NCBI GenBank assembly: GCA_951406725.2
Contig: OX597829.1
Coordinates: 12,586,001 to 12,650,000, forward strand
Source of the DNA: Octopus vulgaris
Lineage: Eukaryota
Direction: 5' to 3'
Length of the DNA: 64,000 nt
Shown: piece after piece, positions 3,461-34,533 of the stretch
Layout of the letters: each line of letters begins with the position of its first letter
How positions within the stretch are numbered: the first letter of the stretch is position 1
Program-made: the position numbers and the translations under genes
The notes under the pieces: generated by a model
Databases searched by the model: none
Seen by the model: only the letters and a program-made list of their open reading frames with translations
What the model was told of the DNA's origin: nothing

Positions 3461-4784
3461 ATCACAAAACTTGTTTCGGTGCGTCACGGGTGAGATGCTG
3501 TACAAGCAGTTATGGAGCATCATTGGAGCAGATGTGTCTCGTCAGATGACTTGTCAAAATGTACCTCCTTTTGTAATATCAGTTTCGCTTACTTCCATTG
3601 TAGTACCTCTTGTAAAGTTGTAGTTCGCTACTCATTTACACGAAAAACTGAGTTATAATGCAGAAATCTTCTTTTGAAGTGATTTATAAAGATTAGAAAA
3701 ATACCAAATATAATATAATATAAAACTAATTAAGTGTATAAATAATGTTTTACACTAATAAAGAAAAGCTGTTAAATTAAAACCATAAAACAACCATGCG
3801 ATAAAGATACAACAAAAACCACAAAGCACAAAACACAATCGGACATTCATATATGTGTGTATTTATATATTCTCCTTCCCCCTCTTTCTACTACTCACAC
3901 GTGATCTGTGACTAATATTCTCATCTCTCTGCCTTTCGTCGCTGGACGCTTAGCTTCCCGGTCAATATCTATCTCCTCTCTTACTATTTCTCTTTCTATA
4001 GCTATTCAGGATTTCTTGCAGCCGTTACCCACCATTCTCGTGTGTTTGACCGAAAGGCCGTATTTGTTCTGTCTTCGTCAATCGTTTTAAACTACATTTG
4101 TGTACTTTCGTACATCCATTCTGTATCGTTTTCTTTGCTCGAGCAAATTGTATGGGTGCCGCCGATATGAGAATGTGTATTAACATTTCGGTTGATAACT
4201 GAAGAATTAGGGTCCTTCTGTGACTGTCCTGTGTGTACGTTTTTTAGAATTTAATGCATTTCTCATTTATTGAGTAACTGAACGCCACGCATCCCGACTT
4301 TTGTTAAAAATAAGTTTACAAAGATCTTTTTTAGTTAATTATAGATCGATTTCTAGCTTAGAGATGTAAAATCCCCCAGTCGTCTTAAGTATAATATACC
4401 ACATAGTACATAAATGCAAATATTTATACATACCCATACGAATAATACATATCCACATGTATATATACATATATTCACACCTACACACGAGTCATATCTA
4501 ACTTATTCACCTCAACTACGTGCATTTACGACAAAAATAATCCCGAAGTGAATATAAATTGATCGGAATAAAAAAACATGTATCTATACATAATTAAGGA
4601 TAAAATCATTATAAAGATCCCATCAAGTGGCCAGCATATAATAAAAACCATAAAGGTAACAGCTAATACTAATATATAATTACAAAGATATTATAATAAA
4701 GGGTGTTGATAAACAACACCAACATGCTACAGATAGACGCCAAATGGGGCTAAGACCACATCTTGCATCTGGCTTATAATCCAA

Positions 4785-5011
4785 GCTGCAATTGTTTTCG
4801 TTTCAGCACACGATCTCAGATCAAATCACTTGCTATGCGAGTACATCTCCTATTCGTTTCAGCACACGATCTCAGATCAAATCACTTGCTATGCGAGTAC
4901 ATCTCCTATATATACATATATATTATATATATATATGTATATATAGGAGATGTACTCGCATAGCAAGTGATTTGATCTGAGATCGTGTGCTGAAACGAAA
5001 ACAATTGCAGC
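4785..5011. repeat. Inverted repeat around a TA core, with a 56-bp tandem duplication in the left arm
   Basis: 4797-4852 = 4853-4908; 4944-5011 is the reverse complement of 4785-4852. Confidence 0.9.
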
Positions 5012-5082
5012 GTAGAAGGTGTTTGTAAGCCATTTAAGAAAGACACAAAAGTCGTTCGATTCACTTCAACATTTAAGTTTAA

Positions 5083-5132
5083 TTTGTCAAAATATTTTCG
5101 TCGCTAAAATCCGCGACCTGTTCACTGACAAA
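5083..5132 (-). ncRNA. Minimal type-I hammerhead-like motif, G3:C8 core variant (mirror copy)
   Basis: Reverse complement of 5153-5202. Confidence 0.6.
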
Positions 5133-5152
5133 AATCCGTGCTGCATCTCTTT

Positions 5153-5202
5153 TTTGTCAGTGAACAGGTCGCGGATTTTAGCGACGAAAATATTTTGACA
5201 AA
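5153..5202 (+). ncRNA. Minimal type-I hammerhead-like motif, G3:C8 core variant
   Basis: Stem I TTTGTCA/TGACAAA; core GTGAACA plus G; stem II GTCGC(ggatttta)GCGAC; GAAA; palindromic AATATT stem III. Confidence 0.62.
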
Positions 5203-5226
5203 TTAAACTTAAATGTTGAAGTGAAT

Positions 5227-5600
<374 letters not shown>

Positions 5601-5845: not shown

Positions 5846-8800
5846 AGGGTTAAAGTTAGGGTTAGTGTTTGGATTAGGTTTAGAGTTAGTCGTAGTGTTT
5901 GGCATAAATTAGGTTACGTTGAGGGTTAGAGACAGGTCTACGGTTATGGTTAGTGTTAGTGCTAGGGTTATTGTTAGGGTTAGGGTTTTGGTTAGATTTA
6001 GTGATATGGTTAGATTTATGGTTAGATTTAGTGTTAGGTTGAGGGTTAGTGTTAGGTGTAGGGTTAGGGTTGGGGTTAGGGTTATGGTTATGTTTAGGGT
6101 TAGGTTTCAGGTTACTTTTAGTGTTGAAGTTAGGTTTAAGGTTAGCGTTAAGGTTAGGATTAAGGATAGGGTTAGGGATAGGGATAATAGTTTTTTGCGT
6201 CAGGGTTACGTTTAGGGTTAGGTTTAGTGTTAGGATTAAGGGTAGGTTTATGGTCAGTGTTGGGGTTAGTATTCGGCTTATGGTTATGGTTATGGTTAGG
6301 GTAAGTATTTGGTGTAGTGCATGTTGAGTTTTACAGTTAGGTTTAGGATGAGTGTTAGGGTTAGTGTTTTTGTTAGGGTTAGGTTTCGGGTTATGGATAG
6401 TGCTACAATTAGGGTTAGGGTTGTATTTAGGATTCGATTTAGGGTTAGTGTTAGGGTTAGGTTTAGAGTCACGTTTAGGGTTAGAGTTAGTGTTACAGTT
6501 ATCTTCATTGTTAAGGCTACTGTTAGGGTTAGGCTAGGTTTAGGGTTGGGGTTCGGTGTAGCTTTAGGTTTGGAGTTAAGGTTATGGTAGAGATAGAGAT
6601 AGGGTTAGTGTTAGGGTTAGGGTTTGGTTTATGGTCAGGGTTAGGCATAGGGTGAGGATGGGTGTTAGGGTTAGTTTTAGGGTTAGTGTTAGTGTTAAGC
6701 TTAGTGTTAGAGGTAGGGTTAAGATTAGGGTTAGGGTGAAGTTTTGCGTTAGGGCTACGCTTTGTTCTAGGGATAAGGTTATGGTTAGGTTTAAGGTTAC
6801 GTTTAGGTTCAGAATTAGGCGTAAGGTTTGGGTTAATTTTAGGGTTAGGGTTAGTGTTAGGGTTAAGATTAGAGTTAGGATTAGGGTTATGGTTAGTGTT
6901 ATGATTCGGGTTAGGGTTAGTGTTTGGTTTAGGATTGGGGTTAATTTCATGGTTAGCGTTAGGGTTAGGATTAGCGTTTTAGGTTAGGGTTATTGTTAGG
7001 TTGAAGGTGAGGTTAGGGCTAGGGTGAGGTTAGCATCAGGTTTAGGTTTATGTTTCGAGTTAGGGTTAGGATAGAATTAGTTTTAAGGTTAGTTAGTGTT
7101 AGTGTTAGGGTTAGGGTTAAGTTCAGGGCTAGGATTTGGGCTCGGGTTAGGTTAAAGTTAATGTTAGTGTTAGGTTGAGGGTTTGGGTTAACTTTAAATT
7201 TGGGGTTAGGGCTACATTTAATGTTAAGGTTAGTGTTAGTATTTGCGTGAAGGTTCGGGTTAGCTTTAAGTTTAGGGTTAGGGTTAAGTTTAATTTTAGG
7301 GTTAGTGTTATAGTTAGGGTTAGTGTGAGGGTTAGGGTTAAGGGTAATTTTAAGTTTAGGCTTAGGGTTAGAGATGGGTTAGTGTTAGGGTTAAGTTATG
7401 TTTAGGTTAGGTTTAAGTTTAATGTTATCTTTAGGTTTAAGTTTAAGTTTAGGGTTAGGTTTAGGGTTAGTGCTAGGTTTATTGTTAAGTTTAGGGTTCG
7501 GGTTAATAATAGGGTTAGGTTCATTCTTAGGTTCAGGTTTAGGGTTAGGTTTAGGTTTTGGTTCAGGGTTAGGGTGAAGGATAGGCTTAGGTTTAGTGCT
7601 AGGGTTAGTGTTGGTGCTAGAGATAGGCTTACAGGTCGCGTTAGCGGTAGATTTAGGTTTACGGTTATTGTTAGTGTTAGGTTTAGGGTTAGGGTTAAGC
7701 TTAGGGTTAGTGTTACGGTTAGGGATAGGTCGAGAGTTAGGTTATGTGTTAGGGTTATTGTTAGTGTTAGTGCTAGTGTTAGGGCTAGGGATAAGTTTAC
7801 AGTCAGGGTTGGGGTTAGGGTTAGGTTATGGTTAGGTTGAAGGATATGTTTAGTGTTAGTTTTAGGGTTAGGCTTTGTGATAGCGTTGTGGTTATGGTTT
7901 GGTTTCGGTTTAAGTTTTGGCTAGGATTAGAGTTAGGGTTAGTGCTAGGTTTATTGGTAGGATTAGGGTTAGGGTTAGTGTTCAAGTTAGGGTTAGTGCT
8001 CGGGTTAGGGTTAGGTTTCAGTTTAGTGTTAGGTTTAAGGTTATTGTTACGGTTACATTTATGGTTAGGTTTAGGGTTAGTGTTAGGGTTAGGGTAAGGT
8101 TTAGTATTAGGGTTAGGACTAGGTTAAGGTTGGGTTTATGGTTAAGTTTCGTTGTATGTTTACTGTTAGGGCTAGGTGTAGTGTGAGAGTTAGTGTGAGG
8201 TTGAGTTTTAGGGTTAGGTTTAGGTATTGGGCTAGGTTTGGTGTTATAGTTAAGGCTAGGGCTAGGGTTAGGGTTAGGCTTATGTTTAGAGATGGGGTTA
8301 GGGTTAGAATGAATGCTAGTGTGAGTGTTAGGGTATGGGTTAGGTTTCAGGTTAGCGTTAGGTTTAGTGTTAATTTTACGGTTAGGGATTACGTGAGTGT
8401 TAGGGTTAGCGTTAGGGTTTACTTTAGTGTCATGTCTAGATTTAGTGGGAGGGCTAGTGTTAGGTTTAGGTTTAGGCTTAGGCTTAGGTTAGGTTTGGGG
8501 TTAGGTTTGGTGTTAGGTTTACTGTTAGGGTTAGTTTTTAGGTTAGGGTTAGTGTTAGTGTTACGGTATGGTTAGGGTCAGGGTCAGTGTCAGGATTAGG
8601 GATAGGGTTAAGTTACAGTTTGGTTTAGTGTTAGGGTTAGATTTAGGTTAGGTTTAGTGTTGGGTTAGGATTATGTTTAGGTTTTAGTTTAGGTTTAGGT
8701 TTGGGGATAGGGTTAGAATTAGGTTTAGTGTTAAGGTTTGGGTTAACTTTAGAGTTAGAATTTGGTTGCGTTCTAGGGTTAGGGTTATGGCTAGGGATAA

Positions 8801-10205
8801 GGTTAGGGTTAGGGTGAGGGTCAGAGTTAGGTTTAGTGCTGTTGTTAGGTTTAGTGCTGTTGTTAGGTTTAGTGCTGTTGTTAGGTTTAGTGCTGTTGTT
8901 AGGTTTAGTTTTAAGCTGTGGGTTCGGGTTATGTTTAGGGTTAGATTCAGGGTTAGGATTAGGTTTGTTTTTAGTGTTAGTTTAGTTTTAGTGTTAGCTT
9001 CAGCGTTAGGGTGAAGTTTAGGGTTAGCGTTAGTTGTAGGGTTAGTGTTAGGCTTAGGGTTAAGATTAGAGTTAGAATAAATGTTAGGGTTAGGTTTAGG
9101 GTTAGGGTCAGGGTTAGGTTCAGGGTTAGGATTAGGATTAACGTTAGCGTTAGTGTTATGGTTCGAGTTAATATTAGGGTTAGGTTTTGGTTTAGGTCTA
9201 TTGTTAACTTTAGGTTTAGGGTTAAAGTTAGTGTTAGGGTTAGGTGTAGGTTTCGCGTAATGGTTAGGGTGAGCTGGCAGATACGCTAGCACGCTGGGCG
9301 AAATGCGTAGCCGTATTTCGTCTGCCGTTACGTTCTGAGTTCAAATTCCGCCGGGGTCAACTTTGCCTTTCATCCTTTCGGGGTCGATAAATTAAGTATC
9401 AGTTACTCACTGGGGTCGATATAATCGACTTAATCTCTTTGTCTGTCCTTGTTTGTCCACTCTCTGTGTAGCCTCTTGTGGGTAGTAAAGAAATAGGTTA
9501 GGGTGAAGTTTAGGGAAAGGACGATGGTTAGATTTCAGTTTAGTGTTAGGGTTAGTTTTACGTTTCGGGTTGGTGTTAGTTTGAGGGTTAGGATTAGGGA
9601 TAGGGTCAGAGTTAGGGTGAGGATCAGAGTTAGGGTGAGGATCAGAGTTAGGGCTAGTGCAGTTGTTAGCTTTATTTTTAAGCTGTGGATTAGGGTTAGG
9701 TTTAAGGTTAAAGTTAGGGTTAGGGTTAGGTTTGGTGTTAGTCTTAAGTTAGTTTTAGTATTAGCTTTAGGGTTAGGGCTAGTTTTAGGGTTAGAGTTAG
9801 TGTTATTGTTAGGCTTAGGTTTAGGGTTAGGGTTATGGTCAGGTTTAGGTTTACGGTCAGGGTTAGGGTTAGGATTAGGGTTAGTGTTATGGTTTCAGAT
9901 TAAAGTCATGTTAAGTTTAGGTCTAGTGTTAACTTTAGGCTTAGGGTTAGAGTTAATGTTATGGTTAAGATTAGGGTTAGTGTCAGGGTTAGAGTTAGGT
10001 TTAAGTTTCGTCTACGGGTTAGGGTGAGGGATAGGTTTGGTGTTAGCGGTAGGGTTAAGTTTAGCGTTAGGGTTAGTTTTAGGGTTAGAGTTAAGTTTTG
10101 GGTTAGGTTTAGGATTAGATTTAGTGTTAGGTTTAGGTATTGGGTTCAGTGTATAGTTATGTGTAGTGTTAAGTTAGTGTTAGGGTTAGCGTTAGATTTA
10201 GATTT
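5846..10205 (+). repeat. Degenerate telomere-like hexamer satellite (TTAGGG/TTAGGT/TTAGTG/TTATGG)
   Basis: About 4.4 kb of hexamer variants with the G-rich strand on +; the ORFs are VR/LG dipeptide artefacts. Confidence 0.93.
9268..9497 (+). mobile_element. tRNA-derived SINE (family 1, Meta-like core) inserted in the satellite
   Basis: GAGCTGGCAG A-box-like, GAGTTCAAATTCC B box, GCCTTTCATCCTTTCGGGGTCGATAAA core. Confidence 0.85.
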
Positions 10206-12335: not shown

Positions 12336-12656
12336 GACGGACGTGTTGTCACCTCGGCTCCGAAGGTAATCATTTATTTTGACTATTTATAGCCCAATTT
12401 TTGTGTACATTTTTGTAAATAAGGTGTGTAAGGCACCCAACTTTCGTTTGAGTGCTTTTCGAAGAGAGGAATTCGCCCCTAGGGGCAGTTTCAACCCTAT
12501 TTAATTTGTGTATTTTTTTCTCGACATTTCGAAAATGTCGAGAAATTGTATTGTAGAACGCTGGTCGCGTTCCTTTATCGACCAACATTCTCCTAGTCTG
12601 GTAACGCTAGGAGAAGAAAAAAGAACTCATGCACGCAAAGTGCAAACCTAAATGAC

Positions 12657-14519
12657 ATGGCAGTGAACGCTGCAACCACTTGCGATAACAGCACTGTCAC
12701 CACCACCACTAACAACAACAACAACAAGACTACTACTGCTACCACCACCGCCTCCACCACCACCACCACCGCCACCTCAAATACTACCTCAACTACCAAC
12801 AACAACAACAATAACAATGACAACAAGAATAATAACATTTGCGCCACCATTTCGACATCTGCTGCCACGGCTGTCTCTTCTGCCACTGACACCACCGCCA
12901 ACAACAAAAACAACAATAGCAACAACAACAATCCCGTTCAGACCTTGTCTCCTCCAACAACAAGAACTGAAGGGAATAAACAAAAGACTGTGACCACCAA
13001 ACAAATTGACAAAAGCTGCTTGAATACAGGGATAAATTATGCAAGTAATTTTCCACCCCTTCCTACTTGCACAATCAAACCAAATACACCGATTTTACCA
13101 ACTGCAGCCAACAACAACATCACCACCAGCAACAACAATAACAAACCAACAACAAATTTCGCCGAGGAGATAAAAGAAAAAAAGACAACAGTATATTTTA
13201 CTGCACAACAAATAAAAGACACGAACATTTTAATAACAGAAGTAGATGGTATAGTAAAAATAAACATACCACAAGAAATATTAGAAGATGAAAAAAAAAG
13301 AACAATTATATATAAAATAATTAATAAGAAAACAAAAAATCCAGAGAAGGCTAACACAAGCAAAATCGAAAAATGCTTGAAACCCATCTGGAACTACAAA
13401 GAGTATGTGACCTGGTGGAACAAGTTCGCACACATACAAGTGGTCTTCTACACTGAAGAGTTGGCAAGACGTTTCTCAACGCTAACTCTTCATTCGGATG
13501 AACTTCAACTAACACCATGCTATCGTGGACAGAAAGTGACTAAGATCACTTTAAACAATGTCCCAAAAATAGCTAACAATCTATGGCTAGTAAAGGCCTT
13601 ATGTGTGAAAATGGAAGATTTCACAATTTTAGAAACCACGGTCACGGAGCACAAAAACTGGGTGGGAAAAAAAGTAGAATTTCTACTACATATAAACCAA
13701 GAGGACATAAAGAAAATACCCACCCAGATATGTGTATCAGAAGACCACAAGTTGTATGTGGTCGTCGATGGCAGAAGACCACGTTGCTACATATGCGGCA
13801 GTGAGCAACACCTAAAAAATGATTGCAAATCTGCCGCAAAAAAACAACAGCAACAACAACAGCAGCCGGAAAAAACAAATAAACCAGCTTTACTACCCAC
13901 ACCACGTTTTGCACGAACAGGACTAATCACAGAAAATCAACAAAAAACAAACCTCACCAACCAAACAACCACACCAACTGCACCAAGAACAGAAGCAACA
14001 CCACCAACAACAACAACCAAGAATAAACCAACTCCCAAACCAAGGACATCTGCCAAAAAGACACTCATCGAAAATGAAGAAACAATTACTACTCCAAATC
14101 CCCACAAAATTGATACCCCAAACAACACAACAATACCTACAATCACTCAAACACAAAATACCCACACCCCACCTCCAAAACCGCATACACCACAACCTAA
14201 CCCTCACCAACCAACACCAACAACAAAATCAACACAGTCTACAATAGACCCCAATATTTTCCCTCTTCCAAGCTCTGATTCTTCTGATTTGTCATTAGAC
14301 GAAGAAGACACAGAAGATTGGCAAATAGCCACAGGGGAGAGGGGAAAAAGGGGAAAAAAGAAAAGAAAAGATAACAAACAAAGCAGGAAGATTCACCACT
14401 CCCGAAACAAAAACATCCCCAGAAAACAAACACATCAACACAAACACACCATCATCAAACCCCCCAACAATGTTGACAGCCATAAACACAAACAACCACG
14501 ACCTAATGGAACACATTAG
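12657..14519 (+). CDS. LINE ORF1 (gag-like), 620 aa, CCHC zinc knuckle
   Basis: CYICGSEQHLKNDC knuckle; T/N-rich N-terminus and P/T-rich tail; lies upstream of the APE-RT ORF. Confidence 0.85.
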   Translation: MAVNAATTCDNSTVTTTTNNNNNKTTTATTTASTTTTTATSNTTSTTNNNNNNNDNKNNNICATISTSAATAVSSATDTTANNKNNNSNNNNPVQTLSPPTTRTEGNKQKTVTTKQIDKSCLNTGINYASNFPPLPTCTIKPNTPILPTAANNNITTSNNNNKPTTNFAEEIKEKKTTVYFTAQQIKDTNILITEVDGIVKINIPQEILEDEKKRTIIYKIINKKTKNPEKANTSKIEKCLKPIWNYKEYVTWWNKFAHIQVVFYTEELARRFSTLTLHSDELQLTPCYRGQKVTKITLNNVPKIANNLWLVKALCVKMEDFTILETTVTEHKNWVGKKVEFLLHINQEDIKKIPTQICVSEDHKLYVVVDGRRPRCYICGSEQHLKNDCKSAAKKQQQQQQQPEKTNKPALLPTPRFARTGLITENQQKTNLTNQTTTPTAPRTEATPPTTTTKNKPTPKPRTSAKKTLIENEETITTPNPHKIDTPNNTTIPTITQTQNTHTPPPKPHTPQPNPHQPTPTTKSTQSTIDPNIFPLPSSDSSDLSLDEEDTEDWQIATGERGKRGKKKRKDNKQSRKIHHSRNKNIPRKQTHQHKHTIIKPPNNVDSHKHKQPRPNGTH

Positions 14520-14816
14520 GTCAAACAGCAACATAACTGAAAACGACATAAAAACAAGTAACCACCCACGCACACCACCCCCACAACACATTAAAATAAT
14601 ACACGTAACCCAGAACACATACAGCACCTGAAATCTCTTTACTCTGATGCAGTAGGGAGATTTCAAAAGTATTCATCAAAGAAACTATACAAAAACCTCA
14701 TGGAAGAAGACTGTGAGGTGAAAAACAAAGGACTTTCGAACAACAAGTAACCTTTTCTCTCTCTCTTTCCTTTTTTGCACTTTCTTTTCGTGTGTAAAAC
14801 ACAATTTTATCGGAAC

Positions 14817-17800
14817 ATGCTCAGAATAGGCAGTATAAATGTACGTGGCTTGGGGTCGCCTTGGAAATAAGGCTACCTGTTAAATGACATCAAGTCACTA
14901 AATCTGAATATCATAGCCATCAGTGAGACCAGACTCCATAGCTTGCGGGCACTCCAGCACAGTTTCTGTACACATTTCAACATTTATTTTTCTCTGTGTC
15001 TACCGAGAATGGGCGGAGGTGGCACCGCGGTGCTTCTCCAGAAGAGTCTGGATCTCAAAGTAAGAGCAATTTTCATAGACCCGGAGGGTAGGCTGGTCGT
15101 TTTGGATGTCGATGGCAGCAATGAGTGTGCTTTTCGACTGATAACAGTTTATGCTCCGTCCTTGACAGGCCGACCAGATTTCTTTCGACGTCTAGAGTCT
15201 TTCATGGGAACGTCTCGTCCTTTACTTTTAGTGGGGGATTGGAATGCCACCCTGGACACGCATCTAGACTACGTGGGCAGAGATAGCAATAGAAGGGGAT
15301 GCAAATGCCTCAAAGACCTGCTCAGACGTTTCCAACTGTCTGACAGGTACCGACTGGACCACCCGAATGTGCCAATGTGGACATGGAGTAACCGCATCGG
15401 GTCGTCCAGATCATACTTAGAGTATTCTGCAGGACAATAGATAAAAATAGTGTAGGTTGTCCACAATTTCATATAGTCAGTTACACAGATCACAAGTTTG
15501 TGACTTGTACACTTGACTTAGATAAGACACATAGGCAGGGTCCTGGTTACTGGAAACTGAACGCGTCTTTTACAGCACGACAGGTTTACAGGGACCGGAT
15601 CAGCACATTAGTTAAGAGAGCTTTGACGGGTACCATCATCAACAACAGATGGTGGTATGCCTTAAAAAAAGCAATTAAAGCAGAATCAGTCAGATACAGT
15701 AAAGACCTAGCATTAGACCGAAATAGAATAGAGGGAGAATTAGTTAAGGTTTTAGAAGAGGCATTTAGAACTGGCATCGCGTCCACGTGCTGGCGGTGAG
15801 ATTGGCCCTCGACCAACACCTCAACGCCAAACATGAGGGATGCGTTGTCAGAGCTAGGATGCGTGCTCTGAGGAACGAAGGAGTTGGAGCCGCCCAAGAG
15901 GCCCGAGTGGTGGAGACGCAACGAGGCAACAGAGCCACCATCAAGTCTCTTATAGATGAACAGGGGCGCGAATTGCTTGAGCCTAAAAGGATGTGTGGGG
16001 CTTTTCAACAACACTTCACCCAACTGTTTGGGACAAGTGGTGGATCAGAACGCGGAGTGGACTTTAGTGCCTACCTGCATGCCTTGCCACGACTCTCAGC
16101 AAGAGAGGTGGAGTCTTGTGAAAGGCCTATCACAGCTGCGGACGTACAGGATGCGATGGAAGGCTGCGCGAGAGACAAGTCACCAGGCTTGGATGGTCTG
16201 CCCTGCGAACTTTATTTTCATATGCCAGACTTGTTTGGATGCGTCTTGGCAGCTGTCTACTGCAACTGGTAGCAAAACGGGAGTAGTCCTGCTTTTGTAA
16301 AGCGAGGAGCAGTGGCACTGATTAAGAAAGACCCAAACAAGTGGGACGTCATAGATCATTTCAGGCCCATCACTCTGCTCAACGCAGATTTCAAAATTTT
16401 GGCCAAGGTGTTAGCCGAGAGGTTGGCGCTTGTCATTAAGAAACTAATCGACAAGGCGCAAACATGCGCCGTGCCGGGTAGAAGTATTCATGACAACCTC
16501 CATCTGATGCGCTACATTATAGACAGGGTAGTTCAGAATCCTGGCATGGGTGGGGCGCTGATCAATTTGGATCAATCAAAAGCTTTCGATAGGGTAGACC
16601 ATCACTACTTGGAGGCTGTCCTTAAAGCGGCTGGTTTCGGTCCAGTTTTCCGCGGTTGGATCGCTGCCTTATACAGCGGCATCAGCTCAGTAGTTCGCGT
16701 AAATGGTCATCTATCCAGACCTTTTAACATCATGCGTTCGGTTCGTCAGGGATGTCCCCTCTCATCGCTGCTGTATGTATTGACTCTTGAGCCACTACTG
16801 CGGAAACTAACGACGCTGAGGGGCATCCCACGAAAGCTGGGATGCGGGAGGAGCGTGTCTGCATACGCGGATGACGTCACCATCATAGTGTCGAACTACG
16901 AGCACATCGAGCTGGTCGGCGAGACACTAAAAGAATACGAAGCGGTAACGGGAGCAAAAATTAACCGGGAAAAGTCAGTGGGCTTGCGGTTCGGCACCTG
17001 GAGAAGCAGGCCCATGCCTTCCAACAGCGTCTCCATCGTGGGACGCTGGACGGACGGACCGGTTAAATTGCTCGGGGTCTGGTTCGGTCGGGACCTCCAA
17101 ATGGAGAAGAACTGGGGCGAGATAACGACTAGTGTGGCTACTCTCACCCAGAAATGGGCTGAGAGAAATCTATCCCTAAAAGGTCGGGCGGAGGTGGCGA
17201 ACGCGTACATCGCATCCGTCATCGAGTATCGTCTGACCGTCGTGCCTTGTCCCGACCCTACCATCACCAAACTGGAATGTATACTCTTCCGCTTCTTGTG
17301 GAAGGGAAACGTTCCGACGGTTAGGCGATCCATTTGCTGTCAACACCCGCTAAATGGAGGGCTGGGCATGCCGTGGTTGATGATGCGCAGGCATGCGCTG
17401 AGACTGCGACATCTCCGGCGCTTCATAGACGACGGTGAACAGTTGTGGTCGCCTTTTGTGCGGCGCGCTTTCCCGCAGCTCGTCTCCTTGGACGAACTAC
17501 AGTCATGGATCAAGCAGAGACCGAGGCTAGGCGAATGGCACCGTGAGTGTCGCGTTGCTCTCAAGCAACCCTGCCGTCCGGGATCGAACTTGTGCGACTC
17601 CATCACAACAAAGGCATTCTATAGAGGATTAGTAGAGGGGAGGTGCGACGACGAACTCGGGCAGAGTCTGGGCGTCGACGAGGAACACCTGACCCGCCTG
17701 TTCAGGACAACTTTCGGGCCGGGACCTATGAACAATCACCAAAGATCCTTGGCCTGGCAGTGCTATGGAGAAGCATTACCTGTTCGGGATAAGCTCTACA

Positions 17801-18249
17801 GACACGGTTTCAGACACACTGGACCGACTTGCCCGAGATGCGGTCAGAGCGACGAAACCGTTCTGCACGCACTCGTGCAATGTCCAACCATTTCAGACCT
17901 GTGGGCTTATGCCGAACGGCTGCTGTCACGTGTGGGACGAATCCGCCTATCGGCCGAGTCTGTCGTGTGAATAGCTCCGCCCCCTTCCCTCAACCGGGAA
18001 GGCAAGGCAGTTTTCATCGTACTGGTGGCCATGGTGAAAGAATGTGTGTGGTGGACCCGAGCGAAAGGATTAGAGACAAACACTTACCTCTCTGGCCAGT
18101 CGCTCATCAACTTTTTCAAGTACCACTTGAAAAGGAAGGTGATAATGGAGAGGGAAGTTTTGTCTCGCGAAAGATTAAAAAAAAGATGGGTGAATGTTGC
18201 AAAGATGGTGCGTGCGAGTGACGAAACTATTTTGAGCATGATCCTGTAG
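14817..18249 (+). pseudogene. Disrupted ORF2 (APE endonuclease, RT, C-terminal Zn finger)
   Basis: MLRIGSINVRGL, VYAP, GDWN, YWKLN, KSPGLDG, FRPITLLNADFKIL, LDQSKAFDRV, RQGCPLS, YADD, CPRC..ETVLHAL..C; several stops and frameshifts. Confidence 0.9.
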
Positions 18250-18586
18250 ATCGTGAAAAAGAAAGAAAGTGAGCATTTTGATCTCATGTGGTTATTTCCT
18301 CCCTGACTGAGGTTCCCGTGGTCTTTTCTGTAGGCTTTTCTTCCCACGGATGAACCCAATCTTGTTTTATCAATGTTTTTATTATTATTTCTGTGATACA
18401 CGATTTCTTTTCTTTTTTTCCTCCTCTCGATCCCTTTTGATCGCAATCTTACATTTATTTTCTTTTTTTCCACCCTCGAAAAGAAAAGCTCTGCATATGT
18501 ATTTGTCCCCTCTGTATTCAGCCCTGTGTGGCTAATAAAAGAAAGTTATCTATCAATTTGTCTGTCTGTCTATCATCTATCTATCT

Positions 18587-21500
18587 CGATCGAAAGTATT
18601 CACTGACAGACCGGCTCCTAAGTCAAAACCTTTTTTTATTGTGTTTTTGAAAAAGTTTCGTGTCAACTTTTGCACATGGAGTGTGTAAGACACCCAGCTT
18701 TCGTCTGGGTGGGTTTTTCCGGAGGGGATTTTGCCCCTAGGGGCAATTTCAGCCTCGATTATATATCAAAACTTTTGATTAATAGCTTGTTTTCACACAA
18801 TGTCGCCGAAGCGTTCCTCATAACGCGTAGACGCTGTTCTTTCTCTCTCGTTTGCATCCATTTGTTTGCACTTTACATTTTCGGAGTTTTTCAACTTTTC
18901 AAACGCCCAACTTTCGTTTGGGTGTTTTTCAAATGTAGAATTCGCCCCTTGGGGCATTTTCATCAATTGATTTTTATTTTTCTAAAAAAAAAATGTCGAG
19001 AAATTTTATCGTAGAACAATATTCTACGATTTTTTCTAAAGAGGATTTCCCTGTTTTGGAAAAGACAGTCAACAAAGACGCTGATATAAAGAAAAATAAA
19101 ACTGAAATCAACACCACCACCACCACCACCAACATCAAAGCTACCATATCTGATAGAAATAACACTGACACAACAACCGTTAACAACAACAATAACAACA
19201 AAAATGAAGTAAATATAAATGTCCAGAATGTAACGATATCTGCTGCCACGGCTTTCGCTTCTGCCACTGACACCACCGCCAACTCCAACAACAATAACAA
19301 CAATAACAACAACAACAATTCCTTTCAGACCTTGTTTCCTCCAACACCAAGAACTGAAGGAGAGAGACAAAAGACCGCGACCACCAAACGAATTGCCGAA
19401 AGCTACTCAAACGCAGGGAAAAATTATGCAAGCAATTTTCCACCCCTTCCTACTTGCACAATCAAACATCAGACACCAAATACACCGAATTTACCAACTG
19501 CAGCCAACAACATCACCACCAGCAACAACAATAACAAAACAACAAATTTCGCCGAGGCGATAAAAGAAAAAAAGACAACAGTATCTTTTACTGCACAACA
19601 GATAAAAGATACCAAAACTTTAATAACTAAAGAAAATGGCAAAGTAAAAATAAACATACCACAACAAATACTAGAAAATGAAAAAAAGAAAACCATTATA
19701 TATAAAATAATCAACAACAAAACAAAAGTCCAGAAAAGGCGAACACAAACAAAATCGAAAAATGCTTGCAACCTATCTGGAATTTCAAAGAATATGTGAC
19801 CTGGTGGAACAAATTTGCGCACATACAAGTAGTTTTCCACACTGAAGAGTTAGCAAAACGACTCTCAACGCTATCTCTTCATTCGGATGAACTCACTATG
19901 ATACCTAGCTACCATGGACAGAGAGTAACTAAGGTCATATTAAACAATGTTCCACAAATAGCGGACACTCTATGGCTAACATCGGCCATATGTGTGGAAA
20001 TGAACGATTTTAACATGCTACAAACTACGGTCACTGAACACAAAAACTGGGTGGGAAAAAGAGTAGAAATTCTGCTACACATCGACCAAGATGCCATCAA
20101 CAAAATACCCACCCAGATATATATATCAGAAGACCACAAGTTGTATGTGGTCGCCGAAGGCAGGAGACCACGCTGCTACATATGCGACAGTGAGCAACAT
20201 CTAAAAAAAGACTACAAATCTGCCGCAAGAAAACAGCAGCAACAACAACAGCAGCCGGAAAAAACAAAAAAGCCAGCTTTATTACCCACACAACAGTTTG
20301 CACGAACAATAAAAGAACCGGTCAAAGAAAATCAACAAGAAACAAACCTACCCAACCAAACAACATCAACAGCAACAACAAAAGAGAAACCAACTCCCAA
20401 ACCAAGAACATCTACCAAAAAGACAAGCATCGAAAATAAAGAAGCAATTACTATTCCAAATGCCCCAAAACACACACCCCAAACACCACAACAATACCAA
20501 CAAAAACACAAACACAAAATACCCACACATCACCTCCAAAACCCATACATCACACCCTAACGCTCACCAACCAACACCAACAACAAAGTCAGCACAGCCA
20601 AAAATAGACCGGAATACTTTTCCCCTCCCACTCTCTGATTCCTCTGACATGTCATTAGATGAAGAAGACACAAAGGATTGGCAAATAGCCACAGGGGGAA
20701 GGGGAAAAGGGGAAAAAAAGAATAGAAAAGCTAACAAACAAAGCAGGAAGATTCACCACTCCCGAAACAAAAACATCCACAGAAAACGAACACATCAACA
20801 CAAACACACTATCACCAAACCCCCCAACAATGTCGACAGCCATAAATACAAACAATCACGACCTAATGGAATACATTAGGTCAAACACCGACATAACTGA
20901 AAACGATACAAAAACAAATAACCACCCACGCACAATACCACCACAACACATTAAAATAATACACGTAACACAGAACACACACAGTACCCTGAAATCTATC
21001 TACCCTGATGCAGTTGGGAGCTTTCAAAAATATTTATCAAAGAAACTTTAAAAAAACCTCATGGGAGAAGACTGTGAAGTGAAAAACAAAGGACTTTCGG
21101 ACAATAAGTAACCTTTCTCTCTCTCTTTTTTCTCATCTTCTTTTCGTGTGTAAAACACAATTTTTTATAGGAACATGCTCAAAATAGGCAGTATAAATGT
21201 ACGTGGCTTGGGGTCGCCTTGGAAACAAGGCTACCTGTTAAACGACATCAAGTCACTAAATCTGCATATCATAGCCATCAGTAAGACCAGACACCGCAGC
21301 TCGTGGGCACTCCAGCACATGTTCGGCACACATTTCAACATTTATTTTTCTCCGTGTCTACCGAGAATGGGCGGAGGTGGCACCGCGGTGCTTCTCCGGA
21401 AGAGTCTGGATCTCAAAGTAAGAGCAATTTTCCTAGACCCGGAGGGTAGGCTGGTCGTTTTGGATGTCGATGGCAGCAATGAGTTTGCTTTTCGACTGAT

Positions 21501-23259
21501 AACAGTTTATGCACCGTCCTTAACAGGCCGACCAAATTACTTTCGACGTCTAGAGTCTTTCATGGGAACGTCTCGTCCTTTACTTTTAGTGGGGGATTGG
21601 AATGCCACCTGGACACGCATCTAGACTACGTGGGAAGAGATAGCAATAGGAGGGGATGCAATTGCCTCAAAGACCTGCTCAGACGTTGCCAACTATCTGA
21701 CAGGTGCCGACTGGACCACCCGAATGTGCTGATGTGGACATGGAGTAACCGCATCGGGTCGTCCAGATCGTACTTAGATAGAGTATTCTGCAGGACAATA
21801 GATAAAAATAGTGTAGGTTGTCCACAATTTCATATAGTCAGTTACACAGATCACAAGTCTGTGACTTGTACACTTGACTTAGATAAGACACATAGCAGAA
21901 TCAATCGGGTACAGTAAAGCCCTAGATTTAGACCGAAATAGAATAGAGGGAGACTTAGTTAAGAGTTTAGAAGAGGCATTTAGAAATGGCATCGCGTCCA
22001 ACGTACTGGCAGCGAGGTTGGCCCTCGACCAACACCTCAACGCCAAACACGAAGGATGCGTTGTCAGAGCTAGGATGCGTGCTCTGAGGAATGAAGGAGT
22101 TGGAGCCACCCAAGAATCCCGAGTGGTGGAGACACAAAGAGGCAACAGAGACACCATCAAGTCTCTTACAGATGAACAGGGGCGCGAATTGCTCGAGCCT
22201 AAAAGGATGTGTGAGGCTTTTCAACAACACTTCACCCAACTGTTTGGGACAAGTGGTGGGTCAGAACGCAGAGTAGACTTTAGTGCCTACCTGCATGCCT
22301 TGTCACGACTCTCAGCAAGGCGGAGTCTTGTGAAAGGCCTATCACAGCTGCGGACGTACAGGATGCGATGGCAGGCTGCGCGAGAGACAAGTCACCAGGC
22401 TTGGATGGTCTGCCCTGCGAACTTTATTTTCATATGCCAGACTTGTTTGGATGCTTCTTGGCAGCTGTCTACTGCAACTGGCAGCAAAACGGGAGTATCC
22501 CTGCTTTTGTAAAGCGAGGAGCAGTGGCACTGACGGAGAAAGATCCAAACAAGGGGGACGTAATAGATAATTTCATCACTCTGCTCAACGCAGATTTCAA
22601 AATTTTGGCCAAGGTATTAGCCGAGAGGTTGGAGCTTGTCATCAAGAAACTAGTCGACAAGGCGCAAGCATGCGCCGTGCCGGGTAGAAGTATTCATTGC
22701 AACCTCCATCTGATGCGCTACATCATAGACAGGGTAGTCAAGAATCCTGGCATGGGTGGGGCGCTGATCAATTTGGATCAATCAAAAGCTTTCGATAGGG
22801 TAGACCATCACTACTTGGAGGCTGTCCTTAAAGCGGCTGGTTTCGGTCCAGTTTTCCGCGGTTGGATCGCTGCCTTATAAGCGGCATCCGCTCAGTAGTT
22901 CGCGTAAATGGTCATCTATCCAGACCTTTTAACATCATGCGTTCGGTTCGTCAGGGATGTCCCCTCTCATCGCTTCTGTATGTATTGACTCTTGAGCCAC
23001 TACTGCGGAAACTGGCACGCTGAGGGGCATCCCACGAGAGCTGGGATGCGGGAGGAGCGTGTCTGCATACGCGGACGATGTCACCATCATAGTGTCGAGC
23101 TACCAGCACATCGAGCTGGTCGGCGAGACACTAAAAGAATACGAAGCGGTAACGGGAGCAAAAATTAACCGGGAAAAGTCAGTAGGCTTGCGGCTCGGCA
23201 CCTGGAGAAGCAGGCCCATGCCGTCCAACAGCGTCTCCATTGTGGGACGCTGGACCGAC
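18587..23259 (+). mobile_element. Tx1/L1-clade LINE copy 2 (ORF1 18993-20879 frameshifted; ORF2 from 21175, broken off after RT)
   Basis: Collinear with copy 1; starts right after TATC/TGTC units; about 146-bp deletion near 21893. Confidence 0.9.
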
Positions 23260-25446
23260 AGAAGCGCCTACCTGACCGACCTGCCGCGGCTCTTGACAAG
23301 GGAAGCGGAGTGTTGTGAAAGTCCCATCACAGCCGCTGACGTGCGGGATGCGATGGCGGGCTGCGCGAGGGATAAGTCGCCTGGATTGGATGGTCTACCT
23401 TACGAGCTGTATTGTCAAATGCCAGACTTGTTTGGCGACCTCTTGGCATCAGTCTGCTGCAACTGGCAACAAAACGGGAGAATATCCGGTTTCGTGAGCC
23501 GAGGTGCAGTGACGTTGCTGAAGAAAGACCCAAACAAGGGGAATTTTATAGATAATTTCAGGCCCATCACTCTGCTCAACGCAAATTTGAAAATTTTGGC
23601 CAAAGTAATAGCCGAGAGGTTGACGCTTGTCATTGGTAAACTGGTCGACAGGGCGCAAACATGCGCCGTGCCGGGCAGAACCATACATGACAACCTCCAT
23701 CTGATACGCTACATTGTGGACAGGGTAGTTAAGGATCCTGGCATGGGTGGGGCGCTGATCAATTTGGATCAATCTAAAGCCTTCGATAGGGTCGACCATC
23801 GGTACTTGGCGGCCGTCTTCAGGGCGGCTGGCTTCGGTCCCGTCTTCCGCGGTTGGATCGCTGCCTTGTATAGCGGCATCAGATCGGTGATTCGGGTGAA
23901 CGGTCACCTGTCGAAACTGTTTGACATAATGCGTTCGGTCAGTCAGGGGTGTCCCCTGTCGGCGCTTCTGTATGTATTGACTCTCGAGCCGCTACTGCGG
24001 AAGCTGGCGACACTGTGGGGCATCCCACGGGAACTGGGTTGCGGGACGAGCGTGTCGGCATATGTGGACGATGTCACTGTCATAGTGCCGGGCGAAAAAC
24101 ACATCCAGATGATAGGCGAGACACTAAGAAAATACGAAACGGTGACGGGAGCGAGAATTAACGCGGAAAAGTCAGTGGGTTTGCTACTCGGAACCTGGAG
24201 AAGCAAGCCCATGCCGTCCGACTGCGGCTCAGTAGTGGGACGTTGGACGGACGGACCGGTTAAATTGCTCGGGGTCTGCTTCAATCCGGACCTCCAAATG
24301 GATAAAAACTGGGACGAGATCACGAGTAGAGTGGTCGCTCTCAGCCAAACATGGGCCGAGAGAAGGCTGTCTCTAAAAGGTCGGGCGGAGGTGGCGAACG
24401 CGTATATCGCATCCGTCATCAATTACCGCCTGACCGTCTTGCCTTGTCCCGACGCTACCATCACCAAACTGGAACGCATACTCTTCCGCTTTCTGTGGAA
24501 GGGTGGCGTTCCGATGGTGAGGCGGTCCATTTGCTGTCAACATCCGTTAAATGGAGGACTGGGTATGCCGTGGTTGATGATGCGCAGGCATGCGTTGAGA
24601 CTGCGACATCTCTGGAACTTCATCGATGACGGTGAACAGGTGTGGGCGCCGTTTGTGAGGCGTGCCTTCCCGCAGCTCGGATCACTGACGGAACTGCAAA
24701 CGTGGATCAAGAAGAGACTGAAACTGGGCGATTGGCACCGAGAGTGTCGTCAAGCTCTACAGCAGCTCTACCGTCCGGGCTCAAACTTGTGCAACTTACA
24801 AACGACTAAAGCGTTCTATAGAGGACTAGTGGAGGGGAGGTCCGACGACACACTCGGGGCAAACCTGGGCGTCGACGAAAAATTCCTAACCTGCTCTTTC
24901 AGGACGACGTTCGGGCCGGGGCGTATAGATAACTTCCAGAGATCCCTGGCTTGGCAATGTTATCGAGACGCACTACCCGTTCGAGAGAAGAGCTACAGGC
25001 ACGGTTCGAAAACTACCACCGGACCGACCTGCCCGAGATGCTGTCAGAACGACGTAACCGTTCTGCACGCACTCGTGCAGTGTCCAGATATTTCAGAGCT
25101 GTGGACCTTCGTCGAACAGCTGTTGTCGCGTGTTGGACGGGCCCGCTTATCGGCCGAGTCTTTCGTGAATATTGTTCCACCGCCTTCCTTTAAACGGGAA
25201 GGGAAAACGGTTTTCGTTACGCTGATGGCTATGGCGAAAGAATGTGTGTGGTGGACGCGTTTGAAAGGACTGCAAACAAACACCTTCCTCTCTGGTCAGT
25301 CTCTCGTCAACTTTTTCAAGTACCACAAAAGGAAGATGAGAATAGAGAGGAAGGCTTTGTCGAACGAATGTTTTAATAAAAGGTGGGTAAAAGTGGCAAA
25401 AATGGTCAGTATGAAAGACGACACTATTTTAAGCGTAAATCTGTAA
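23059..25446 (+). CDS. Chimeric 795-aa frame: end of copy-2 RT fused in frame to copy-3 RT and C-terminal domain
   Basis: Contains SAYADD at the start and a second complete RT (SAYVDD); junction VGRWTDR|SAYLTDLPRL. Confidence 0.8.
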   Translation: MSAYADDVTIIVSSYQHIELVGETLKEYEAVTGAKINREKSVGLRLGTWRSRPMPSNSVSIVGRWTDRSAYLTDLPRLLTREAECCESPITAADVRDAMAGCARDKSPGLDGLPYELYCQMPDLFGDLLASVCCNWQQNGRISGFVSRGAVTLLKKDPNKGNFIDNFRPITLLNANLKILAKVIAERLTLVIGKLVDRAQTCAVPGRTIHDNLHLIRYIVDRVVKDPGMGGALINLDQSKAFDRVDHRYLAAVFRAAGFGPVFRGWIAALYSGIRSVIRVNGHLSKLFDIMRSVSQGCPLSALLYVLTLEPLLRKLATLWGIPRELGCGTSVSAYVDDVTVIVPGEKHIQMIGETLRKYETVTGARINAEKSVGLLLGTWRSKPMPSDCGSVVGRWTDGPVKLLGVCFNPDLQMDKNWDEITSRVVALSQTWAERRLSLKGRAEVANAYIASVINYRLTVLPCPDATITKLERILFRFLWKGGVPMVRRSICCQHPLNGGLGMPWLMMRRHALRLRHLWNFIDDGEQVWAPFVRRAFPQLGSLTELQTWIKKRLKLGDWHRECRQALQQLYRPGSNLCNLQTTKAFYRGLVEGRSDDTLGANLGVDEKFLTCSFRTTFGPGRIDNFQRSLAWQCYRDALPVREKSYRHGSKTTTGPTCPRCCQNDVTVLHALVQCPDISELWTFVEQLLSRVGRARLSAESFVNIVPPPSFKREGKTVFVTLMAMAKECVWWTRLKGLQTNTFLSGQSLVNFFKYHKRKMRIERKALSNECFNKRWVKVAKMVSMKDDTILSVNL

Positions 25447-27477: not shown

Positions 27478-30400
27478 ACACACCCACATACACACTCACA
27501 GAGTTCAGCCAACACAATCCTCACCTCGGCTCTTTAGATGTTAACCAAATATGAAAGTATTATTTGACAGGCAAGAATTCTGGCGTTGAAGACAGCCAGC
27601 CAGCCAGCCAACGAGACAGATAGACACTACTGTGGTGGTGATAATGATAAAAAAAAAACAAAACAAAAATAAGAATAATAAGATACTGCTGTGACTACAC
27701 ATAAAACAATATCATTGATGATGATGATGATGATGATGGTGATGATAGTAGTAGTGGCGATAATGATAATAGTGATAATAATGGTGATGATAATAACAAT
27801 AATAAGCCGACTACGGCTGCTATAATGGTACGATTATAATTGTAACGGCAATGATGGCCGTCTCCCCACGAGCCAATCAAAGCTAAAAAATGATAACATT
27901 ATCGTAGCACCAAAATGTTTTTTGGAAACTAAAAGGAAAACTAAATCAGTATACCAAATCGCTTGTGTTATGGATAATCTGGAAGCGCGTCCCCCAGGGA
28001 AGAGCCAGCCTGGGAACGAAAAGTCATCAACTGGCACAAACTCTTCTCCGAATACGGACATGGATGGTCACTTGAACGGGAAATTCCCCAACTCGAGCCC
28101 TCCAAGTTCACCACCACAACCACCACAGAAAGAAAAATGTAAGCGGAACAAATGGACCCGTGAAGAGTATAAAGAAGTAATATACGCTTATTACTATGCA
28201 TTAGGTCGGCCATCTCAAGAGAGACACACCGCAAACTCTTACAGTATATGGAGAACACGGAATCAAGACAGTAGGCCCTATTTGGACGAGAACAAATTGG
28301 CATATGTGAGGAGGGATATCCTTAGAAATAACAGACTCACAGACAGTGAAATAAGCGCGATCAAGCACGCAACGGAAAATGACATAAATATAAGACACAA
28401 AGGAAATGAAGAATCAGATGAACAGTATAGCCCGCCACGCGGCTTAATTGAAAGACTGCCATCTGACCAAAGTACGCAAAGGCCTGAAGATACAAGAAAT
28501 TCTATTGAACCTGTTAAAGATAGCCAGGAAAAGATAAAACAACAGTAACTGAAGATCTCGCATTTGCTGAAGAACACAGAGAGTCTATGGCAGAAATGAG
28601 GCAGAAAATCCTGAATACACTTGAAGTTGTAAGACATACAAGTATCAATGATAGAGAACCACTTCATAAACTCTCAAATACAAACCAAAATAAAAAACAA
28701 ATCCAAATTGGCAACTATGTAACAAATGAAATAATACGAGAATTAAAACCTGATTTTACTGAGTTAAATGAAATTATTTACGCTTCTACTAGGACAATTG
28801 AAACCAGCTGTATGCTCCCGAAAAAACAAGGAAAACAAAACCTGGGAAGAAATCAAACCTGGAGAAGTAAAATTGAAAAAGAGATTGAATTTATGAGAGG
28901 GGAAATATCAATATTAAATGAACTAATATGTGGAAATGATGTAAGATCCAGAACAGGAAGAAGGATGAAGAGAAAATTTGGATCCTCACCAAGAGAAGAA
29001 CTGATATCAATAAAAGAAACGCTGAAACAAAAAGTCCAAGCAAAAGCCCAAAGAATACGAAGATTTGAGAAGAGAAACAAGATTTACAAGCAAAATAAGC
29101 TGTTCACATCCAATGCCAAAAAATTCTACAGAGAAATAGGGAAGGAGAAAGTAACCGTTAAAGACCCCCCTCCCATGGAAGAAGTTCAAAACTTTTGGAA
29201 AAGGATTTGGAGTGACAAGAAGACGTACAACACAAATGCAGACTGGATTATACAAACTGAAGAATCCTACCAAAATTTACAGCAACAAGCATGGGAAGAC
29301 ATCAAAATAGCAGACCTAAGAAAGGCACTCACGAAGGTCCCATAATTCGAAATCCCCTGGTAAAGATAGGGTGCCGAATTTCTGGCTCGCATCGCTCCCA
29401 TGCGCACACGGTAAGCTAGTTCAGCTGCTCAATGGAATTATGAGAGACCCAAAGAAAACACCTGAATGGTTAGCAAGTGGTATTACCTACCTACTCCCAA
29501 AGAATAACGAAACCAACCTTCCAAAAAACTATCGGCCTATAACCTGTCTATCCACCATGTATAAAATCCTAACATCTATCCTGGCGGAGAAAACATATGC
29601 ATTCATGGAGAAGAACGATATTTTCCCCATTGAACAAAAAGGGTGCCGCCGAGGCTCATACGGATGCAAAGATCAACTGCTAATTAATCGTATGATCCTT
29701 GAGAACTGTCACAACAAGCGCAGAAATCTCAGCTCCGCATGGATTGACTATAAAAAGGCCTTCGACAGTATACCGCCTCCATGGATCTTGAGATCGCTGG
29801 ACATCTTCAAAATTTCCCCTGTGATTTCAAACTTCCTGAAGCATAATATGTCGTTGTGGAATACGAATCTCCAATTATATCACTCTAATGGAGTACTTGC
29901 CTCAGAAAATATAAACATCAACTGTGGAATTTTTCAAGGTGACTCACTTTCACGTTTAATATTCTGCATAGCCCTAATACCCCTTACAAGTGAATTAAAC
30001 AGAACAGGGTATGGGTATAAAATTGCCAATAAAAAAATAAGCCATCTATTTTATATGGATGACTTAAAACTCTATGGTAAAGACAATAATGAACTTGAAG
30101 GCCTATTGCGCACCGTGAAAGCATTCAGCGATGACATCGGGATGGAGTTTGGATGAGAAGTGTGCCAAGGCCACTTTCCAGAAAGGGAAAGTGAAGACCA
30201 CAAATTCAGTCGTGTTAGATGTTGACACAGTCATAAGAGAGCTTGAGCAAGAACAAACATACAAATATTTAGGGATAAATGAAGGCTTTGGTATTCAGCA
30301 TGCAAGCATGAAAGAGAAGATCAGGAAGGAATGTTATAGGAGAGTTCGTGCAGTCCTGAAATCTGAACTAAATGCATGTAACAAGGTGTTAGCTATAAAT

Positions 30401-31775
30401 TCCTTAGCAGTTCCAGTTGTTACTTATAGCTACAATGTGTTGAACTGGAATATGAGTGAAGTAAAGAATATAGATAGGAAAATACGCAAGCTGCTGAGTC
30501 GTAATAGGATGCACCACCCAAAGACAGACATAGATCGCCTTTACCTTCCCAGAGCCCAAGGAGGTCGAGGCCTGATCCAATTTGAACTAGCTTACAAAAC
30601 AACCACAATTGGACTGGCCAAATATCTCGAAATAACGAATGACTGGATGCTAAAGCTCGTGGAAAATCACGAGAGACGAAAGAAGCTTCATTCTATCATC
30701 AAGGAAAGCAAAAAATTTGCTATTGATCTCGTGCAGGATACCCAAACTGAACAACCCGAGGGAAGTACGGCAACTATTGTTGCAAAGAAGGTGAAAATAA
30801 TGGCAACGAAAAAAGCGCACGAGCAATTGGCTGATAGGTGGGAGGAGAAACCTCTGCACGGCAAATATGTGACCCGTAGCAAACAAGCTGATGTTGACCA
30901 GAAGCAAACCCATCAGTGGCTACGGAGCTCAGGGCTAAAAGCAGAGAACGAAGGTTTTATCCTGGCTGCTCAAGATCAAAGCGTATTAACCTGGAACTAC
31001 CAGGCCAATGTGATGAAAAATGGAGCAGACCCCAAATGCCGATTCTGCAATGACATGATTGAAACAGTGGACCACCTAATCTCTGGATGTAAAGTCTTAG
31101 CACCAGTGGAGTATAAATTAAGACATGACAGAGATGGCCAATATCTCCACTGGCTAATAAGTCGGCATTACAATATCAAAACTGCCGACAAGTGGTATAA
31201 TCACCACTCTGAAGCTGTAACTGAAGGCGAAAATGTAACGATTCTGTGGGACTTTCCAGTACATACAGACCGAACCATCAAAGCCAATAAACCAGATATT
31301 GTTGTGAAAGACCAAAACAATAAAGTTTGCTTATTGATCGACATGAGCATCCCCTGTGATCATAATATTTCGGCGAAAGAGTTTGACAAGCTCAGAAAAT
31401 ATAAAGACCTGCTCATTGAAATTGAGAAAATGTGGCATCTCAAGGCGGTTACAATACCAGTGATCGTAGGAGCACTAGGAATGATCAAGAAGGGAACCGA
31501 AAATTATATGAGAATGATCCCTGGCTTACCATCCCTGCAAGAAGTGCAAAAGATTGTCTTAACTGGTACATCACACGTATTGAGAAGAGCATTGTCGATG
31601 TGAGAGCTGTTACTGCCCATGTATTTTAATTTAACCTTAAAAAAGAAAAAAAATGAACGAACTATTTAGTTTGGTTTAATGGCCTACCAATGTATACTAT
31701 GAGTTTCTTTGCCCTAGGAGTCGGGAAGACGCTCGGCAAGAAATGGAAGCAAATTTGAAAGAAGAAGAAAAAAAT
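27478..31775 (+). mobile_element. Near full-length R4/Dong-like RLE LINE, copy A (ORF about 27922-31603, frameshifted)
   Basis: Myb-like KWTREE N-terminus, YRPITCL, QKGC, WIDYKKAFDS, YMDDLKL, CRFC..ETVDHL..C, RHD, KPDIVV..LIDMSIP, KLRKYKDL; ends in A-run and (TAA)n. Confidence 0.93.
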
Positions 31776-34439: not shown

Positions 34440-34506
34440 CTATGTACCGATCAGTTTCGATTGTTATTATCCACGCATGTGGATACCTGCAATCTCATCA
34501 GCATAG
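34440..34506 (-). ncRNA. Type-I hammerhead ribozyme (mirror copy)
   Basis: Reverse complement of 34534-34600. Confidence 0.85.
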
Positions 34507-34533
34507 TCAGTCATATAGAAATACAATGACAGA

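Follow-up and report, generated by a model that had tools for sequence, protein, structure and literature searches.

A hammerhead motif with a reversed 3:8 core pair in a Penelope-like retrotransposon family of Octopus vulgaris

In a 64,000-nt stretch of Octopus vulgaris DNA (contig OX597829.1, positions 12,586,001 to 12,650,000; hereafter the window), positions 5056–5229 hold an inverted repeat, each arm of which carries a hammerhead-like motif with G3 and C8 in place of the canonical C3 and G8. What kind of element does this motif belong to, is the swap a natural state or an accident of one locus, and would an RNA with such a core still cut itself? The locus comprises the following features.

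5153..5202, plus strand: minimal type I hammerhead fold, predicted cut 5195/5196
5153-5159/5196-5202, plus strand: stem I, 7 bp (plus-arm numbering)
5160-5166, plus strand: core G3 (5160), U4, G5, A6, A7, C8 (5165), A9 (5166)
5167, plus strand: extra G between A9 and stem II
5168-5172/5181-5185, plus strand: stem II, 5 bp, with an 8-nt loop
5186-5189, plus strand: G12-A13-A14-A15.1
5190-5195, plus strand: AUAU (5190-5193), U16.1 (5194), U17 (5195)
5083..5132, minus strand: identical hammerhead fold, with G3 at 5125, C8 at 5120 and U17 at 5090
4946..5149, minus strand: main insertion, an approximately 204-nt pLTR copy of a Penelope-like family, 97.5% identical to the reference; its order is extra G (5149), inferred transcription start (5148), hammerhead, long 'tail' end
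4946..5033, minus strand: first ~29 codons of the element ORF, ATG (5033-5031) following the predicted cut by 56 nt
5135..5150, no strand: 16-nt spacer, which is the 5' end of the minus-strand copy and not unrelated DNA
5151..5231, plus strand: second pLTR copy, inverted and 5'-truncated, which begins in the stem I T-run and stops at about 5231
4907..4945, no strand: (TA)n microsatellite at the 3' junction, the usual target of the Penelope-like family
4780..4908, plus strand: two extra tail fragments of the same pLTR with a 56-nt tandem duplication, facing the main copy across (TA)n

Independent numbering of the plus-arm core placed the predicted cut after 5195, exactly where the preliminary description had put it, and each arm does carry a hammerhead with the G3/C8 core, as that description stated. 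The stems are arranged around the core in the type I order, and U4, G5, A6, A9, G12, A13, A14, the A15.1-U16.1 pair and H17 are present, each in at least 129 of 133 copies. The canonical identities of C3 and G8 are absent, and the G3 and C8 found instead form a Watson-Crick pair. Features of minimal Penelope hammerheads are present as well, namely the extra G at 5167, the G5168-C5185 pair and the palindromic AAUAUU (5189–5194) of stem III and loop 3. Stems I and II are the minimum free energy (MFE) structure of the 50-mer (-14.7 kcal/mol, z -3.4, with 1 of 200 shuffled sequences equally stable); this folding signal weakens as context is added (66 nt, z -1.68; 93 nt, z -0.53). In the monomer, 5.4 kcal/mol must be spent to close A15.1-U16.1, an intermolecular stem III duplex of 6 bp can be formed by AAUAUU at only -0.2 kcal/mol, and the cofold MFE differs from the active dimer. 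By these models stem III would be feeble even in a dimer, which counts against reading the motif as a cleaver. Rfam returned no hammerhead match at the gathering threshold, nor at E<=10, where only generic hairpin models appeared, in keeping with the earlier expectation that standard searches would miss the motif. Judged by the structural features tested, except for the identities of C3 and G8, the motif is a minimal Penelope hammerhead for which cleavage is predicted.

Published work is cited here for the accessible portions of each source. The minimal type I hammerheads of Penelope elements (Cervera and de la Pena 2014, PMC4209133) share with the motif their location in the pLTR, the extra nucleotide between 9 and 10.1, G10.1-C11.1, a short palindromic stem III and U17, and their elements likewise form massive numbers of truncated copies and pairs on opposite strands. 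These hammerheads cleave poorly in vitro, and they have in common with ours the weak stem III. The difference lies at positions 3 and 8: G3 occurs in 0 of the 56 motifs of their Fig. S3, most of which are C3-G8, with two U3-A8 and one U3-G8. U17 is common in Penelope hammerheads and the Crassostrea gigas motif of the same figure has UUU, so the UUU cleavage triplet, which had been called unusual, is not.

The identity of the element was approached through the genome. A DNA search with the motif gave 65 matches from 40 scored candidates, one of them at a locus with a GIY-YIG fragment upstream of the motif. With this fragment as the query, a hammerhead was found in the sense orientation approximately 0.8–1.3 kb downstream in 29 of 30 endonuclease loci; the 30 include the query locus, and at the single locus without a hammerhead the motif lies just past the locus edge. 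An ORF of 1025 aa (P0001) contains RT motifs, a CX3CxxC linker (residues 896–903) and a GIY-YIG domain recognized by Pfam at E 1.8e-5; no Pfam RT match was found at E<=0.01, and the RT was recognized by its motifs. The pLTR follows the ORF and, in tandem copies, also precedes it, with the ATG 56 nt past the predicted cut and the hammerhead wholly in the 5'UTR, outside the ORF. An inverted truncated copy, a tail and a microsatellite target are all present, and 189 aligned copies have their 3' ends at two places about 55 nt apart. The RT motifs, the linker and the GIY-YIG domain point to an EN+ Penelope-like element of the Neptune/Nematis type by the criteria of Craig et al. (2021, PMC8557442), an assignment made from linker and domains rather than from an RT tree. 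Neptune/Nematis elements likewise have the RT followed by a C-terminal GIY-YIG domain, a CX2-5CxxC linker, tandem and inverted truncated copies, a tail and (TA)n targets, although their tail measures 30–40 nt as opposed to ~55 nt here; among Penelope-like elements, inverted truncated copies are the norm, as are tails and microsatellite targets (PMC8557442). The PAc Penelope element of Anolis shares the tail signature and AT-rich targets (PMC11167929, PMC8495972), and its 'tail' has been tied to two reverse-transcription start sites (PMC11167929). By sequence, the swapped-core motif belongs to a large family of Penelope-like retrotransposons, as the hammerhead of their pLTR/5'UTR. We also considered coding constraint as an explanation of the core and rejected it: the ribozyme is in the 5'UTR with the ATG downstream, which leaves the core free of such constraint, and subfamilies do not share the short upstream frame.

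The arms of the inverted repeat (5056–5134 and 5151–5229) are 79 nt each and 100% complementary. The preliminary description had spoken of a perfect 79-bp palindrome; the complementarity is indeed perfect but the 16-nt spacer makes this an inverted repeat and not a strict palindrome. The plus-arm pLTR copy is ended at ~5231 by the start of another abundant repeat (the stretch 5226–5285 matches 64 of 325 loci). Inverted pLTR pairs are a pattern of the family, with 7 seen by eye among the first 100 matches listed, and since they are common, the 79-nt palindrome is best read as an ordinary insertion product of the Penelope-like element, formed by an inverted, 5'-truncated pLTR copy. For an RNA read through both arms, a hairpin of -129 kcal/mol is predicted, as opposed to about -15 kcal/mol for the ribozyme. 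The same fold does occur on both strands, as originally described, but this supplies no dimer partner because any single transcript holds only one sense copy. Given that single copy and the strength of the hairpin, the hammerhead at this palindromic locus is predicted to be masked and inert. A non-LTR retrozyme was rejected as a candidate for the locus, the window copy being an inverted pair and not a head-to-tail array of tandem units with hammerheads.

The window contains other features of interest. A second inverted pair (34429–34514 and 34526–34611, with outer arms at 34332–34432 and 34609–34709, 99% complementary) has a canonical C3-G8 type I hammerhead on each arm, and this pair (34429–34611) probably represents the pLTR of a further Penelope family. 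A 151-aa frame on the minus strand (50509–50964) resembles, by eye, a Penelope GIY-YIG endonuclease fragment of a different family. Degenerate (TTAGGG)n arrays occur inside the chromosome at 5846–9270 and 9540–10195 (~574 and 110 units). Broken retrotransposon ORFs, also recognized by eye, are found at 12597–25446, 27826–31603, 56658–60371, 874–1524 and 49230–50387, and we take them to be LINE-type ORFs of at least three kinds.

The swapped core is the consensus of the family. A tight family pattern has 6,483 matches in the genome, of which 6,137 have C8 and 346 do not; a reversed-pattern control has 0, and the matches are not due to chance. The genome search suggested in the preliminary description thus bore out GTGAACA as the family core. 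By eye, G3 is present in 97 of the first 100 family matches listed, and C3 was not seen among the first 100 non-C8 matches listed. The oldest subfamily has 241 matches; counted by eye, 90 of the 100 listed have C8, and 28 of 30 loci carry G3-C8, with a median identity of ~83% to young copies. We considered whether G3/G8 copies might be a surviving intermediate lineage and rejected this, as the position-8 spectrum is like that of a control and the oldest subfamily has C8. Substitutions at position 8 (T46:G34:A20 in the first 100 of 346 listed) do not differ from those of the cytosine of a control ACA (T51:G25:A24 in the first 100 of 196 listed; p=0.37, both counted by eye). G3/G8 copies would accordingly be compatible with ordinary decay, with the caveats that G8 stands on both arms in 3 of 5 inverted pairs and that such matches are in excess around one part of the assembly. 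This excess amounts to 123 of 223 G3/G8 matches from contig C16 of the genome (G000) onward, above the genome share and possibly due to local duplication.

The polarity of the swap can be judged from related families. In that of P0002 (57% aa identity), C3/G8 is found in 53 of 53 copies. This family (loci L130–L159) is young, with open frames of ~1,310 aa, and its C3-G8 hammerhead has C at position 9, again in 53 of 53. A pattern with the canonical core between the same flanks found 12 matches, as opposed to 1 for the control. The 10 that were retrieved all lie outside the query family, and several of them are hammerheads located before the start of a homologous ORF; these canonical-core relatives were chosen on identical flanks. 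Only two relatives came from a scan of metagenomes, and the pLTR was read for one of them (L294); a metagenomic relative with 41% identity has a clean C3-G8 hammerhead after its ORF. In an alignment of nine rows, column 3:8 pairs in 9/9 (CG 6, GC 2, GU 1), which in nine related rows amounts to one inherited event of covariation and not nine events. Across related families, 90.7% of cells in the stem pairs are paired, a value reached in 2/500 shuffles, again with related rows. The presence of C3-G8 at the homologous place in related Penelope families indicates that the swap is natural and derived, and the state of the subfamilies suggests that it is old and stable as well; the natural, doubly compensated core proposed at the outset is thereby upheld, being the consensus in this family beside C3-G8 in its relatives. 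A further locus (L115) has a minimal U3-A8 hammerhead, with the core at 4870 on the plus strand and again on the opposite strand, so that three types of 3:8 pair are found in this genome.

Which RNA is copied into DNA can be read from the 5' ends of the copies. One sharp 5' end, 23 nt before G3 and preceded by a purine, is shared by 1,047 copies. In 89 of the first 100 of them listed, an extra G stands in place of the C or T of the element, and the sequence upstream of it varies; in the window, position 5149 is the extra G of the main copy. This nucleotide is likely derived from a cap and marks the start of element transcription, which would be the A of the sharp 5' end, ~59 nt before the cut. 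Alternatively, a very short first exon could end in this G, given that the sequence before it looks like a branch point and a 3' splice site; no GT-AG joint was seen in the sequencing-run contigs examined. Copies that start exactly at the predicted cut are not enriched, with ~6 clean ones among the first 100 of 462 listed, like the neighboring positions (by eye). A footprint of cleavage among the 5' truncations was also rejected: 2 of 189 aligned copies start at the predicted cut, yet no peak is seen genome-wide. A sharp 5' end upstream of the ribozyme, together with the lack of enrichment at the cut, suggests that the copies were reverse-transcribed mostly from uncut, likely capped RNA, in agreement with unprocessed RNA being the main substrate of the PAc element (PMC11167929).

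The 3:8 pair positions the 2'-OH of nucleotide 8, and the swap keeps the pair. The explanation that we favor, with moderate confidence, is that the G3-C8 hammerhead of the pLTR is a slow, dimer- or protein-assisted self-cleaver in the RNA of the element and that the palindromic copy in the window would be inert. The element would be transcribed from its own pLTR, and the swapped hammerhead, placed close to the RNA 5' end, would cut slowly, needing a partner copy or an element protein, so that most RNA would escape cleavage. Reverse transcription would begin in the tail, downstream of the ribozyme, and copy mostly uncut RNA; the cDNA would be inserted into AT-rich targets, and a second, truncated cDNA joined in inverted orientation would give the palindrome. 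U17 may contribute by avoiding the G3-C17 pair that C17 would allow. For a G3-C8 variant, G17 has been stated to give higher activity than C17 ('data not shown', PMC3884650). In PAc, the C3G/G8C double mutant partly rescues the Penelope hammerhead and cleavage needs the element protein (PMC11167929).

It is also conceivable, if rather unlikely, that the swap killed or nearly killed catalysis in the same element and that the ribozyme is vestigial, persisting through a few master elements or through its overlap with the promoter and 5'UTR. The evidence for selection on the motif as a ribozyme is mixed. Among 133 copies, subfamily-level changes affect 4/8 positions of loop II and 1/42 positions of core and stems (p=0.0014), a test in which the positions were picked after the table had been viewed and the G8 minor allele (9/133) was set aside as decay or duplication; the sole change in core and stems keeps pairing, as U-G. 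Core and stems are nevertheless no better conserved than the downstream UTR (1/42 vs 4/50, p=0.37), which is what a dead ribozyme would show, as is the lack of copies starting at the cut. The C9 fixed in 53/53 copies of the sister family of P0002 points the same way, for it implies that Penelope cores of this kind can drift. In vitro, a different Penelope element does not need its hammerhead for insertion (PMC11167929), and Naiad elements thrive without canonical hammerheads (PMC8557442). Against loss of function, only two core changes separate the motif from the canonical consensus and they restore exactly the 3:8 pair, for which a rough, post hoc chance estimate is 1/66 x 1/3, and G3-C8 has been stable across subfamilies ~17% apart while loop II changed repeatedly.

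We consider it very improbable that the ribozyme is efficient in vivo, cutting at both pLTRs so that religation would yield circular unit RNAs as templates, as in the model of PMC4209133. Religation would restore the sequence, so intact copies are compatible with this scheme, and one head-to-tail array would suit it, but the 1,047 copies with a sharp 5' end upstream of the ribozyme, most of those listed with the extra G, indicate linear capped templates. The array (L093:1741–2970) consists of at least six hammerhead-bearing pLTR units of ~170–190 nt with (TA)n between them, a retrozyme-like arrangement found only at this locus among those examined. A DNA element of the MITE or foldback type, or a cassette dedicated to a two-strand ribozyme, with the palindrome as the functional unit, is hardly credible in spite of the perfect 79-bp arms and the many dispersed palindromic copies, for the arms are unequal and stop at different places, the two tail positions of the Penelope-like element, most copies are single, the unit is attached to an RT/GIY-YIG ORF, and a read-through hairpin would far outweigh the ribozyme.

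The family can be set beside several known systems. Natural U3-A8 variants (Perreault et al. 2011, PMC3088659; PMC4209133) are likewise compensatory 3:8 changes, but they keep a pyrimidine at 3 and a purine at 8 and require two transitions, whereas G3-C8 reverses the pair and requires two transversions through a mismatch. The engineered C3G/G8C rescue mutants, including that of PAc (PMC11167929, PMC8495972), have the same bases as the motif and regain cleavage in part; they are laboratory mutants, whereas G3-C8 here is the wild type of ~6,000 genomic copies. Another difference is that the PAc ORF starts inside stem II, whereas the octopus ribozyme lies wholly in the 5'UTR. The accessible portions of four further sources (10.64898/2026.07.22.740005, PMC6765202, PMC6155905, PMC11014351) report no G3-C8. 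The element, the ribozyme class and the palindrome are ordinary, and the natural G3-C8 state is the new part. In the literature covered, G3-C8 hammerheads were found as engineered mutants and not as natural ones, and none of the entries listed on octopus Penelope hammerheads concerns this element; outside that scope lies the largest survey, that of Lunse, Weinberg and Breaker in 2017, which reportedly takes in a very large number of Penelope hammerhead variants and could already record G3-C8.

A bolder proposal, that the motif is the first hammerhead from nature to combine a reversed G3-C8 pair with catalytic activity and that it was fixed since a slower ribozyme suits the element, seems doubtful to us. 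If it were true, cleavage would strip the mRNA of its capped first 59 nt, and a cut at the 3' pLTR would separate the start of reverse transcription from the ORF; the swap would have co-adapted with U17 to lower the rate of self-cleavage, helping the family reach thousands of copies, and GUGANCA hammerheads would be an entire class overlooked by descriptor searches.

Laboratory swaps were what established the 3:8 pair, and the natural covariation recorded for it in the literature covered is U3-A8. Having G3-C8 as a natural wild type, next to relatives with C3-G8 in one genome, would confirm the pair independently, from evolution, and would widen the descriptors used in ribozyme searches. For the role of Penelope hammerheads, related families in this one genome offer a comparison of C3-G8, G3-C8 and C9 cores.
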